A DNA stretch of 64,000 bases from an uncultured Armatimonadia bacterium. Its GTDB lineage: Bacteria > Armatimonadota > Zipacnadia > CAVVLO01. The stretch covers positions 128,001-192,000 of the forward strand of contig CAVVLO010000003.1 of NCBI GenBank assembly GCA_963749155.1, read 5' to 3'. The position numbers and the translations under genes were made by a program. Positions within the stretch are counted from its first letter, which is position 1, and every line of letters starts with the position of its first letter. The notes beneath the pieces were generated by a model. The model had not been told where the DNA came from. It did no database searches and saw nothing but the letters and a program-made list of their open reading frames with translations. Shown here piece after piece: positions 18,254 to 25,401 of the stretch.

Positions 18254-18380
18254 TGGTAAAGCACCCCCCTTGGGGAGATAGACGCCCAGAAGTGGCGAGC
18301 TGTTCACCTGGACTGTTAAGAGATTTGGGAGTGATACTCTGGCAACACTTCAGAGCAACGGTGTCACAAGCCTGCAACCG

Positions 18381-18497
18381 CGCTCTGTTGCACTTCTAGT
18401 TTCACCATCCCTAACCCCCACCCTCCCGGGGGTGCAAGAAGCGTGCCAGAAGCGGGGCAAAAGGAGAGCCAGGATGAAAGGTTTACGGAAGGTTTAC
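18381..18497 (-). repeat. Dispersed sigma54-promoter/G-tract element, copy 2
   Basis: TGGCACGCTTCTTGCACCCCCGGGAGGGTGGGGGTTAGGGATGGTGAAACTAG on the minus strand. Confidence 0.9.
18433..18448 (-). promoter_or_regulatory. sigma54 -24/-12 promoter facing the esterase gene
   Basis: TGGCACGCTTCTTGCA, consensus match. Confidence 0.75.
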
Positions 18498-18560
18498 GTT
18501 TTAGATACGCAAAAGGCCAACGCCAACGGGGACCAGTCTGTAGAGAGTTGCAGCCTTCGA

Positions 18561-19913
18561 GTGCTTCCTCTCCCCTCGATTTGGGCTTTGACGCTTGCGT
18601 GCCTGGTAACAGTGATTTCCCTTCCTCCTTCGCCTTCCCCGCCTCGGAGCGGCCTTTTGCCCCTTGTCTTGCGGATTTTCTGGCAACTGTCTACGCCCCG
18701 CCAGACCAGTTCGACGCGGACCTCGGCAATGGGATGATCCGGCTCTGGCTTTCGAGTGCGACTGGAGCACCGTCGAGCCGCAGCGGGGCGAGTGGCATTT
18801 CGAGGCGATGGACAAAGTGGTTCTCGCCCTGCACGAGCGCGGTATGCAGGTCGTGCCCCTGCTTGCTTACACCGCCGGATGGGCCTCCAGCGCGCCCGAT
18901 GGCAACGGCAACGCTCCCCCGCGCGAGGTTGCAGACTGGGAGAACTACGTCGAGAAGATGGTCGCTCGTTATTCACGCCCGCCCTTCAACGTGAAGTACT
19001 TCCAGCTCTGGAACGAGCCCAAGTGGAGTGTCGATACTGGCTTCTGGACTGGCACAGGCCCCGAGTGGGTGGATATGATTTTCATCCCAGGGGCACGTAT
19101 CATCCGCAAATATGGCTGCAAGACCGTCTTCGGCGGTTGGCCTTGCAACCAGCCGCAGGACCTCGACACCGCTCTCGAATACAACGACTGCTGGCGCTGG
19201 GTGGATATTATCGACGTCCACTATTTCCCCGTCGACATCTTTCAGGATATGTGGGACAAATACCTCTCTACTGGGCGTTGCGAGGGGCTTTGGCAGACCG
19301 AGATCGGCTGGCTTACTTTCCCGAACTACCTGCCCAACTGCTATCTGCGCGCGCTCTACTGGGCGCTTGGACACGGCTGGGAGGAGGGTTCGGACAGGTA
19401 CAAGCTGTTCTGGTTCGCTTGCTGGGGAGCTGGACCGGATGGGCCAGCCAGCCTTACTCAACCAGGGGAAGGCGGCAATGTCCTCTCCCAGCATGGGCTG
19501 CGGCAGAAGGTTCTGAACGAAGTGCTCGGGGGCGAGCAGCTTGCCAGGTATGACGATTACACTACCAGCCTCAATCTGCAAGCCGAACTTACCGAGGAGA
19601 AACCCACCGGACTCGGCTTCCAGGTAGGAGAAGCGCGTCGAGTGGTGGCGCTGCTCCTCACGCCCGACTTGCTGAAAGCTAACGCCTCAGTGGTCGTTAC
19701 TCTGGGAAGTCTCTCCAGACAGCCTGCCTAGCGTACGCCTTCTGGATGTACTGGGGAATCCCCTGACGGTTGACTCCTCCTGGGCTGATGGGAAGCTGAC
19801 CTGCACCTTCCCAACCGACCAACTGAAAGCCCGAGACTGCCCGAAACTATGGCGTGGACTTCCCCATCGCGCCGGCTTATCTGGTGGTGGATTGCGCCAA
19901 TCCTGAGCCCTGA
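18561..19913 (+). CDS. Clan GH-A glycoside hydrolase (GH5/GH39-like), frameshifts at both ends; boundaries approximate
   Basis: DWSTVEPQRGEWHF, FQLWNEP (acid/base), LWQTEIG (nucleophile); coding continues past 19731 in shifted frames to ...FPIAPAYLVVDCANPEP*. Confidence 0.75.
19859..19893 (+). repeat. 35-bp direct repeat, copy 1 (partner 20147-20181)
   Basis: CTTCCCCATCGCGCCGGCTTATCT is identical for 24 bp; 3 mismatches over 35 bp. Confidence 0.9.
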
Positions 19914-19974
19914 GACTGGACTCTCAAACAAATCTTGGCCAGTTTTCCGCAGGTTAAGCGCCTATTTCACCTTG

Positions 19975-20029
19975 CTGGCACGCTTCTTGCTTACCCCGGG
20001 TGGGTGGGGGCTAGGGATGGTGTAACTAG
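19975..20029 (+). repeat. Dispersed sigma54-promoter/G-tract element, copy 3 (promoter 19976-19991)
   Basis: CTGGCACGCTTCTTGCTTACCCCGGGTGGGTGGGGGCTAGGGATGGTGTAACTAG; inverted relative to copy 2. Confidence 0.9.
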
Positions 20030-20146
20030 CGCGAACCGCGTAACTGGAGTGTTACCGGGTTTTTAGGAAAAGGCTGCAACCTGTGGAATTGCTACCAGCA
20101 CCTTCAGCTGAATAAAGGAAAAGTCGCTCTCGACTCCGCAACCGTT

Positions 20147-20181
20147 CTTCCCCATCGCGCCGGCTTATCTACTGGTGGAAT
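20147..20181 (+). repeat. 35-bp direct repeat, copy 2
   Basis: See 19859-19893; reads FPIAPAYLLVE in the equivalent frame. Confidence 0.9.
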
Positions 20182-20227
20182 TAAAAATGCAGAAAAATAA
20201 TCCTTCGTCCGGCTAAAAACCACTAAC

Positions 20228-20253
20228 AGGTACGAAGATTGCATATGTATAAT
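20228..20253 (+). promoter_or_regulatory. sigma54-like promoter AGGTACGAAGATTGCA with adjacent TATAAT
   Basis: GG 20229-20230, N10, GC 20241-20242; TATAAT at 20248-20253. Confidence 0.55.
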
Positions 20254-20395
20254 AAGTGTGAGAGATTCAGGATTCGCGTTTAGGTGGAGTATTGCTGGGG
20301 TAGATATAAGTTAGGTCGCAACCTGCACGCTGGCTCTTGGCTTTGTCTCCACCCGAAAAGGGGCGCTGTCAACTTCGACAGCGTCCCTTTTTCTT
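20254..20395 (+). ncRNA. Candidate sigma54-dependent small RNA (~140 nt)
   Basis: No credible ORF between promoter and terminator; long imperfect hairpin GGTGGAG(20283-89)/CTCCACC(20347-53) with apical TAGGT-CGCA-ACCTG. Confidence 0.5.
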
Positions 20396-20396
20396 T
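20356..20396. terminator. Bidirectional intrinsic terminator
   Basis: AAAAGGGGCGCTGTC-AACTTC-GACAGCGTCCCTTTTTCTTT; lies between the candidate sRNA (+) and the GH95 stop (-). Confidence 0.85.
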
Positions 20397-20408
20397 GAGC
20401 CAGTCGGC

Positions 20409-22718
20409 CTAGATAGCCCGCAACACCAACAGCTGACCTGGTTCGGTATCAAACTCCAGATAGCCAAGCTCGTTCTGTTCTACACGTACCGGTTCATCTG
20501 CGAGATAAGCCTCGCACGCGACATCGGGCGCCATTATCAAGCACTTCCCCCCCTTGCGAGAGAGGATACTCGCTTCGACAAATTCGTCATTGCGCCAGGT
20601 GATATCGACGACGAAGCCGCCCCGCGCGCAAAGTCCCGTCACCTTGCCTTCGGACCAGGCCTCGGGCAGTGCCGGCAGCAGATGGATAAAGCCCCGCTGG
20701 CTTTGCAGCAGCATCTCGGCCATCGCCGCTGTCGCTCCAAAGTTGCCATCTATCTGGAAGATATGCGGCGGGTGCAAATCCAGCAGGCTGGGCGTCGTGA
20801 ACTGCCGCAGCAGCTCCTGGATATGTTCGAAAGCCAGGTTCCCTTCGAGGAAACGAGCCCACAAAGCGGCAGTCCAGGCGCGACTCCAGCCCGTATGCCC
20901 CCCGCCCGCTGCAAGTCTGAGCTCCAGCGAGACGCGCGCCGCTGTAAACAACTCCGGTAGCCTCTCAGGGGTCATCAGCTCGCCGGGGAATACACCGACC
21001 AGATGGGAATAATGCCGATGACCTGGCTCTACTTCCTCGAAATCTTCCAGCCACTCCTGAAGCTGGCCCTTCCGGCCAATGTGGAAGTCAGCCAGGTGTT
21101 CGAGCGCATATAGCCAGTCCGGACGCAGTGGATCATCCAGTCCAAGCAACTGGCTTGCCGCAAGGCAGCGCTCGAAAGTCTCGCGTACAAAGACCAGGTC
21201 CATTGTCGAAGCGACACCGATACTGACAGGTTCCGCCCCCCCTCTGAACCGGTTCTCGGGCGATTGACTCGGCACGGTAACCAGTTTCCCGTCCTCGGCT
21301 TGCACCAGGTAGTCCAGGTAGAACTCTGCCACCAGTTTGTAGAAGGGATAAGCCTGCTCGCGAAGGAATTCCTCCTCTCCCGAAAACTCCCACCGCTGCC
21401 AGAAGTGCTGCGCGAGCCAGGCCGCAGCGCCTGTCCAGATGTCCCAACCAGGCGACTCAGGGGTGCACCGGGCCCAGACATCATCGGTGATTGGGAAGCA
21501 CACTCCCTTGCACCCGTAGAGCTTATTGGCGGCATCCTTGGCATAGGGCACGGCGCGCCAGACGAATTCGAACAGCGGTGCGGTGCATTCAGGCAGGTTG
21601 CAGATCTCGGCCAGCCAGTAGTTCATCTCGAGGTTTACATCCTGATGGAAGTCCGCATCCCAGGGAGGCGCAAGTTCGGCATTCCAGAGGCCCTGCAGGT
21701 TGGCGGGCTGGTCCGAGTTGCGGCTCGAGGCCATCAGCAGGTAGCGCCCGTAATTAAAGTAGAGCGCCGGTAGTGAGGGATCGTCTTCGCCAGTCCTGAC
21801 TCGCGCCAGGCGTTCCTCAAGGGGCAGAGATTCAAGTTCCTCATCGCCCGGTAAATCCAGGCTGACGCGTGTGAAAAGCGTCTTGTGCTCTCTGGTATGA
21901 GCTTCCAGCACCTCATCGAAGTCGCGCGACAGCAGGTCGAGTCTTTCGGTGCAGCATGAGACAGGATCAGGACACTCGTAGTTGGTGGCCATCGTCAGGG
22001 CAATCCAGGCGGATTTTGCCTCTCCGACAAGCACTTCCCTCTCGTGGCCCGAGGTGTAACCTCCCTCGACGAACAAACGCGCTTCCGCTGCGAAGGCGAT
22101 GCCTTCTTCGAACAAGCCCTCAAGCCCCAGGGAATGCGGGCTGGCCCAGGTGGTCAGCTTGCAGTCGGGATCCAGTGTCCGAGTAAGCTCCGCGGTAAAG
22201 GCCAGAGCGCCTTCGGTATCCGCTTCAAGCTGCACCGACTAGCACGTTGTCAACCGCCGAAGCGAAGACTCGCCTGGTGTAGCCAACTCCCCCCGCCTCA
22301 TAGCTGACCTCAACAACGCCCTTCTTCCAGATACAAGACTCGCGAATAATCACGCGGTTCAGGCTGGTCAAGCAGGTGGAGCACCAATTCACCCAGCGGG
22401 TTGATAGGGCTCTACCCTCCGGTCGTGCCCTGACAGGTGTTCAGTCGCAAGCGCCGCGCCTTCGAGCCATTCTCCAGCAAGGAGTTTCTCTCTGATTGCT
22501 GGCAGGTGGCCTCGCACCATCGGGCAGCTTCGGTCATTGGTACGCCCGCGCCAAAGATTCTCGTGGTTGAGCCAAAGTCGTTCTTCCGGCACGCCTCCTG
22601 CCACCATCGCACCTAACTGGCCATTGCCGACGGGCAAGGCTTCAAGCCACTCTTCGGCTGGCGAAGCTAGCCAAAGCTCGGTTAATATCCTCTCGGCGTC
22701 TTCCATATGCGCCGTCAC
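20409..22718 (-). CDS. GH95 alpha-1,2-L-fucosidase, frameshifts at ~22235-22400
   Basis: WLEALPVGNGQLGAM, FNYGRYLLMASSR, PANLQGLWN, VNLEMNYW, GQLQEW, HRHYSHL, FQIDGNFG. Confidence 0.9.
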
Positions 22719-25325: not shown

Positions 25326-25401
25326 TCCTTGGTAGCTCAATCGGCAGAGCGGATGGCTGTTAACCATTAGGTTGTAGGTTCGAGTCCTACCCAAGGAGCC
25401 A
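25326..25401 (+). tRNA. tRNA-Asn (GTT)
   Basis: 76 nt; acceptor TCCTTGG/CCAAGGA, anticodon loop CTGTTAA, GGTTCGAGTCC T-arm, discriminator G, encoded CCA. Confidence 0.97.

Follow-up and report, generated by a model that had tools for sequence, protein, structure and literature searches.

The stretch flagged at 20228-20396 is a real feature of this DNA. It probably forms the 3′ half of a longer sigma-54 unit that has no gene and for which the first-pass annotation had named the wrong promoter. That annotation had proposed a sigma-54-driven small RNA of about 140 nt on the plus strand. An ORF-less, terminator-ended unit without an Rfam family does lie in the gap between the two flanking genes, while the promoter assigned to it did not hold up. 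A perfect sigma-54 site, called P1 here, is located 253 nt further upstream on the same strand, and the unit is more likely to be about 390 nt long. The regulon to which P1 belongs, in which promoters share a G-rich start motif and no activator could be detected, is a more unusual finding than the RNA itself. The features are listed in Table 1. Positions without a prefix are those of the window, that is, the whole 64,000-nt stretch that was analysed, and positions with the prefix C1 are those of contig C1 of the assembly.

Table 1. Positions of the features discussed in the text
Feature	Position	Strand	Description
Upstream gene, 355 aa	18664-19731	+	GH42-like match, weak
Gap	19732-20408		between the plus-strand 355-aa gene and the convergent GH95 gene
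Direct repeat, copy 1 (33 nt)	19859-19891	+	85 nt upstream of P1
P1, sigma-54-type promoter	19976-19991	+	TGGCACGCTTCTTGCT; TGGCACG-N4-TTGCT; GG 19977-78, GC 19989-90
G-rich motif	19994-20020	+	CCCC-GGG-T-GGG-T-GGGGG-CTA-GGG-ATGG; four G-tracts, loops of 1, 1 and 3 nt, C4 in front
Predicted ORF-less transcription unit	~20002-20396	+	P1 to terminator, ~390 nt
Weak hairpin followed by U5	20033-20068	+	attenuator candidate
Direct repeat, copy 2 (33 nt)	20147-20179	+	50 nt upstream of the GG-N10-GC site
GG-N10-GC site of the first-pass annotation		+	AGGTACGAAGATTGCA; GG 20229-20230, GC 20241-20242
TATAAT	20248-20253	+	adjacent to the GG-N10-GC site
Imperfect hairpin (71 nt)	20283-20353	+	3′ domain of the predicted unit
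Intrinsic terminator, bidirectional	20356-20396	both	15-nt arms, 93% complementary
GH95 gene, next after the gap	20409-22235	-	catalytic-domain match, E 4e-148
Family copy ahead of the BD-FAE esterase	promoter 18448, motif 18430	-
Family copy in the window	promoter 11779, motif 11761	-
Gene-less family copies	C1:394710 and C1:416914	-	followed by 250-350 ORF-less nt, which contain a G+C-rich hairpin and reach the 3′ end of a convergent gene
rpoN	C1:910320-911726 (L031:556-1962)		full-length RpoN, 468 aa
REC-HisKA-HATPase gene	C1:913969-915411 (L176:8970-10412)		preceded by a perfect sigma-54 promoter; two genes downstream of rpoN

The gap and its neighbouring genes

The source assembly comprises 4.17 Mb in 7 contigs, is rated 100% complete with a contamination of 5.87%, and has a G+C content of 59-60%. 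As had been noted earlier, the gene that follows the flagged stretch is convergent; its stop codon occupies 20409-20411. The GH95 region as a whole (20409-22718, minus strand) is split into three ORFs, at 22389-22718, 22225-22392 and 20409-22235, which jointly span the N-terminal domain profile. The split amounts to two frameshifts, arising either from gene decay or from indel errors in the assembly.

A search against Rfam 15, which had been proposed as a check, gave no match at E ≤ 10 within 19600-20600, with GlmY, GlmZ, Qrr, CrcZ, Pxr, 6S, SRP, tmRNA and RNase P all included. In the entire window, the gathering score was reached only by a tRNA-Asn at 25326-25401.

The two copies of the 33-nt direct repeat are identical at 31 of 33 positions, have sharp edges and are absent from the rest of the genome; the repeat is possibly a binding site or the scar of a duplication. 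A 12-nt inverted repeat (19895-19906 and 20267-20278) raised the idea of an invertible promoter, which was rejected. Such a repeat is expected at about chance frequency by our estimate, no gene would be faced in either orientation, and no strand-switch joints were seen among the metagenome contigs over the locus.

The promoter P1 and sigma-54 sites in the genome

P1 agrees with all 12 consensus positions, and its score of 29.9 bits places it 15th among the 46 sites that reach at least 16 bits. The scoring matrix was built from 31 of this genome's own sites, and the reversed genome served as the control. At thresholds of at least 18, 16 and 8 bits, the genome contains 39, 46 and 289 sites and the control 0, 1 and 92, respectively. 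Perfect TGGCACG-N4-TTGCW sites occur 22 times in the 4.17 Mb against about one expected, a figure that comes from our own arithmetic over 8.3 million positions with equal base frequencies. For most of these 22 sites a long ORF begins within ~150 nt downstream, so that they behave as real promoters. With the -12 to +1 spacing that is usual for sigma-54 promoters, transcription from P1 would begin near 20002.

The predicted transcription unit

Since P1 is a perfect site and no convincing terminator occurs before 20356, the unit would extend over about 390 nt rather than 140 nt, and the gap probably makes a non-coding RNA of this length, with the flagged stretch as its 3′ domain. The strong terminator with a U-tract that had been described at its end is present. 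On the plus strand (20354-20396) it folds with -27.5 kcal/mol (z -8.3; matched by 0 of 200 shuffles) and has the tail UUUUUCUUU. Read on the minus strand, it ends in UUUU and reaches -24.1 kcal/mol (z -4.9); the terminator would thus also serve the convergent GH95 gene. Between P1 and this terminator the only such hairpin is the one at 20033-20068, which was rejected as an attenuator: its energy is -11.2 kcal/mol (z -1.1; matched by 27 of 200 shuffles), and the stem takes up three of the five U residues.

The long imperfect hairpin was also recovered, and it is specific to the plus strand, where it folds with -25.3 kcal/mol as against -13.8 kcal/mol (z -0.2) on the minus strand. It goes only modestly beyond chance (z -1.9; 12 of 200 shuffles equally good). 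The full-length fold of 394 nt has an energy of -127.5 kcal/mol (z -1.9; 3 of 100 shuffles equally good), and in it the G-rich 5′ end can pair with CUCCACC, the 3′ arm of the hairpin, just upstream of the terminator. Taken together, the sequence features are those of an independent small RNA gene, namely a promoter of its own, no ORF and an intrinsic terminator.

A separate RNA of ~140 nt could instead start at ~20254-20260 from the GG-N10-GC site and/or the TATAAT, either on its own or together with the long RNA as a second form, which we consider improbable. Both elements are present as described: the GG-N10-GC spacing is correct, the -12 half reads TTGCA, and the site sits in an A+T-rich patch (the 20229-20253 region) that is unusual for a genome of this G+C content. 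Repeat copy 2 lies upstream of the site much as copy 1 lies upstream of P1. However, the score on the genome's own matrix is 7.9 bits, which is chance level and compares with 29.9 bits for P1. With 10 of 12 consensus positions matched, the site is on a par with 447 others in the genome, and the base that follows GG, a C in 31 of 31 matrix training sites, is replaced by T. The TATAAT has no -35 partner, and a sigma-70 scan returned 0 sites in 19500-20700. Together the two elements make a possible weak second promoter. That the gap holds a small protein or a decayed gene is very improbable indeed. There are short frames, such as the one for MQKNNPSSG at 20187-20216, which has GGTGGA upstream, but no frame of at least 7 codons in the gap has a credible ribosome-binding site, and each of the six frames contains 6-12 stops across 19732-20408, which bears out the lack of an ORF reported for the flagged part. 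Against a decayed gene, no paralogous DNA was found elsewhere in the genome for any part of the gap besides the promoter and the G-rich motif.

A G-rich start motif shared by sigma-54 promoters

The G-rich motif that follows P1 belongs to a family with the 27-nt form CCCC-GGG-N-GGG-N-GGGGG-NTW-GGGAYGG. The genome contains 17 copies, and all 17 are located 1-14 nt past a sigma-54 -12 element, one of these promoters being degenerate. A stricter pattern retains 16 copies, with 0 for the same pattern read backwards. In the alignment of the 16, the C-run and all the G-tracts are invariant and the loop bases are variable. Family copies account for 16 of the 27 tight G4 motifs in the genome; for these G4 counts the reversed genome is an uninformative control, since reversal leaves the G4 pattern unchanged.

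Four runs of at least three G with short loops, as in a G-quadruplex, are found at 19998-20016 (GGG-T-GGG-T-GGGGG-CTA-GGG), and the G4Hunter-type score of the motif after P1 is 2.17. Judged by this pattern, the motif would be of the G-quadruplex type, and the C4 could instead form a hairpin with the third G-tract. The C4/G4 pairs are constant across the copies, and the flanking pairs vary inconsistently (AAT/ATT versus AAG/TTT). In three copies of this genome, including the one in the gap, the motif begins 1-3 nt after the -12 element, so that the C4 and the first G-tract would lie upstream of the start and outside the RNA. Such short spacing would favour a role at the level of the DNA or of the start site over a purely RNA role.

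The copy in the gap and those with promoters at 18448 and 11779 have ~70 nt in common (promoter, motif and GGGAKGRKGWARCTAG) and diverge beyond; the remaining 14 copies are distributed over contigs C1, C2, C3 and C6. The genes behind the family include two alpha/beta-hydrolase esterases, a GH3 enzyme, a GH29-type fucosidase with an F5/8 domain and a pectate-lyase-like protein. No Pfam match was obtained for 7 of the 12 ORFs tested, and the identifiable ones are mostly carbohydrate-degrading enzymes or secreted enzymes related to them.

None of the 78 other class genomes contains the motif pattern, and a profile made from the 16 copies gave 18 matches in its own genome and none in the class relatives at E ≤ 0.01. 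One metagenome contig (run X2) matches the window at 19975-20022 only, that is, over the promoter and the motif, with unrelated flanks on both sides, so that related populations carry further copies of this cassette.

RpoN and the undetected activator

The genome encodes a full-length RpoN, with domain scores of 32.7 bits (AID), 128.8 bits (CBD) and 107.2 bits (DBD); six class relatives align with it over the RpoN box and the helix-turn-helix. A CxxC...CxxC insertion is present after region I, at residues ~55-75, and among the six aligned relatives G007 alone has it. The nearest ESM Atlas clusters of this protein are commonest in Chloroflexota, which is given here as a lead only.

Sigma-54 requires an AAA+ enhancer-binding protein, and no such activator (PF00158, GAFTGA loop) was found in the genome. 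PF00158 has 0 matches at E ≤ 1e-20, the best ones being to ClpA-/ClpB-type proteins at 38-39 bits. By comparison, at least one match at this threshold is present in 60 of 78 class relatives, usually exactly one, and rpoN is present in 58 of the 78. The genome contains no HTH_8 domain, its one GAFTGA is in a junk ORF, and tblastn with the activators of three relatives recovered receiver domains only. Given the division into 7 contigs and the 5.87% contamination, the activator gene may have been lost from the assembly or may lie in a gap between contigs. A canonical rpoN and ~40 strong promoters without a detectable activator present a puzzle as to how these promoters fire. Sigma-54 activators from three relatives were tested, and for the receivers of two of them the genome's best match is the receiver of the REC-HisKA-HATPase protein; the gene looks as if the ATPase part of an activator had been replaced.

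In the account of Francke et al. 2011 (PMC3162934), sigma-54 and enhancer-binding proteins co-occur near-perfectly, the exception named there being the inactive sigma-54 of Neisseria. Dozens of well-kept sigma-54 promoters in a genome without a detectable activator ATPase contradict this co-occurrence. As a long shot, one might picture a sigma-54 regulon of ~40 promoters that works without an AAA+ activator, in which a G-quadruplex-type start element on the non-template strand would help or gate promoter opening or early transcription, and in which the gene-less copies would be regulatory RNAs or decoys.

Gene-less copies of the cassette

Four of the 16 strict-pattern copies, including the one in the gap, have no ORF of at least 80 aa starting within 420 nt; the gap copy was counted among them since its only such ORF is antisense to GH95. 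The genes that face the copies at C1:394710 and C1:416914 are GH76-like or ConA-like lectin/glucanase genes. These two copies and the one in the gap are thus laid out alike: each continues without an ORF until it reaches the 3′ end of a carbohydrate-enzyme gene that is convergent with it. In front of the fourth gene-less copy there is a HEPN/nucleotidyltransferase pair. The two C1 copies are paralogous to each other over ~130 nt, a stretch in which an A+T-rich box stands ~55 nt ahead of the promoter. A block shared by three gene-less copies ~90 nt into them, ATTG(G)CT..CAGC.CC, was set aside as a post hoc pattern that is not reported by BLAST and has 4 unrelated matches, and is kept as a lead only.

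In the reading that we prefer, the gap would be a gene-less copy of the cassette made of a sigma-54 promoter and the G-rich start motif. Sigma-54 RNA polymerase would start from P1, transcribe ~390 nt without coding potential and stop at the terminator that is common to GH95. Because the cassette otherwise precedes genes for carbohydrate-degrading enzymes, the RNA would be made together with the carbohydrate-enzyme regulon, and its most likely role would be that of a co-regulated non-coding RNA acting on this regulon or on the neighbouring GH95 gene. We rate the chance that P1 drives a real co-regulated non-coding RNA as about even; the transcript, its two ends and any function are predictions from sequence. 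A look for RNA sequencing runs that cover 18300-21500 returned none, and two metatranscriptome runs from the study with the best DNA coverage contained next to none of its sequence words. A decoy or base-pairing role would be a guess, and when the RNA was paired computationally with the G-rich motifs of the 16 other copies, the result (z -0.5) was matched by 14 of 60 shuffles.

The cassette may instead have been copied into the 3′ region between two genes, in which case the transcript would be functionless and the hairpin and terminator would belong to the end of GH95 only; we regard this as possible, though rather doubtful. The 33-nt direct repeats flank P1 and its leader, as a duplication or an insertion might leave them, and together with the fourth copy in front of the HEPN/nucleotidyltransferase pair they suggest that the cassette can land unproductively, so that the copy in the gap may be debris. 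Four of 16 copies without a downstream gene and a frameshifted GH95 are in line with such an origin. The same holds for the esterase promoter at 18448, the nearest sibling at a distance of 1.5 kb, from which the gap copy differs at 6 of 55 positions (89% identity). However, none of these 6 differences falls in the 12 consensus positions, the C4 or the four G-tracts. No conservation was seen past the strain level, at which contigs share ~96% identity: the best foreign DNA match in 60 class relatives (E 0.011) covers the terminator only, and when JGI metagenome contigs were scanned with the 355-aa protein upstream as guide, no relative came up. A scan of the JGI contigs for a sigma-54 promoter followed by the motif returned 4 stretches, all of them homopolymer artefacts or chance matches. 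Within the strain level, on the other hand, the gap has not diverged further than the genes beside it. Contigs from three metagenome runs show 48 differences in 1237 nt over 19795-20414 (3.9%) and 249 in 4849 nt (5.1%) over the mostly coding flanks, as our own sums of counts in which the variant positions in the gap are unlisted. The U-tract of the terminator is better on the plus strand and the hairpin folds on the plus strand only, both of which favour the non-coding RNA, as does the single layout of three copies; the modest fold statistics, at z -1.9 for the whole RNA as well as for the hairpin, speak against it.

Comparison with known small RNAs and G-quadruplex elements

To our knowledge, sigma-54-dependent small RNAs are few and come nearly all from Proteobacteria. 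This picture would become broader with a candidate that is linked to a carbohydrate-enzyme regulon and comes from a deep-branching uncultured lineage. CrcZ of Pseudomonas and Pxr of Myxococcus are small RNAs that need sigma-54 and an activator. The Qrr small RNAs of Vibrio are described as dependent on sigma-54 and LuxO (PMC10162802). The predicted unit resembles all three in that small RNA synthesis would be tied to sigma-54, but it has no Rfam sequence or structure match to them, and the activator gene was not found in its genome.

GlmY and GlmZ of the Enterobacteriaceae, described as sigma-54-dependent small RNAs of which some have overlapping sigma-70 promoters (PMC3045617), were the source of the overlapping sigma-54/sigma-70 promoter idea in the first-pass annotation. 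As far as that account describes them, they are similar to the unit in the gap: non-coding units that stand alone, have a -24/-12 promoter of the sigma-54 type and end at an intrinsic terminator. In contrast to them, the unit has no Rfam match, is ~390 nt long, lies in a carbohydrate-enzyme locus and opens with a G-rich motif that is also common to mRNA leaders, and its genome has no detected enhancer-binding protein such as GlrR. The 5′ element shared with mRNA leaders and the end at a gene-less terminator recall small RNAs derived from leaders or attenuation, such as rnTrpL. Unlike those, the unit has no downstream gene, the next one being convergent, and the hairpin followed by U5 at 20033-20068 is unconvincing as an attenuator.

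A G-quadruplex on the non-template strand just downstream of the start is reported to raise transcription via R-loops (PMC7341879), and the GGGTGGGTGGGTGGG quadruplex is reported to have unusually high stability (PMC4880955). The motif after P1 resembles the elements described there, with four G-tracts, loops of 1, 1 and 3 nt, and a place on the non-template strand at the start site. Those studies, as far as they are described in the sources cited, were done in vitro or oriented towards eukaryotes, whereas the motif here is known as a sequence pattern.

The motif in other phyla

The ~27-nt G-rich start-site motif recurs behind different promoter types in unrelated phyla. Its pattern was found in at least 122 loci, counting one genome per species (L034-L155). 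No Rfam family covers the motif in the 20 of these loci that were scanned, and no description of it was found in the bacterial literature, including by its 13-nt G-tract core as DNA, as RNA and as the reverse complement. Conservation extends beyond the pattern: among the matches listed, an extra C stands in front in 118 of 122 and YGG follows in 121 of 122.

At least 31 of the loci are coding and lie in the C-terminus of hydantoinase A in Gaiellales-type Actinomycetota, reading ..WIPPGWVGARDG..; we take these matches as a coincidence of a protein motif with codon bias. Most of the remaining loci among the matches listed are also from Actinomycetota, with several per Glycomyces genome, and one is from a Planctomycetaceae assembly. 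In Actinomycetota and Holosporales assemblies the motif often follows sigma-70-type promoters. Many of the actinomycetotal copies among the matches listed are placed a few bases past boxes of the TGACA/TAnnnT type and are followed after 20-60 nt by the start codons of unrelated housekeeping genes. At least 12 loci are in Holosporales assemblies, in A+T-rich DNA (28-41% G+C) after a repeated promoter-like block, where they precede tRNA genes and genes that, named from their translations, are thymidylate-kinase-like and CTP-synthase-like.
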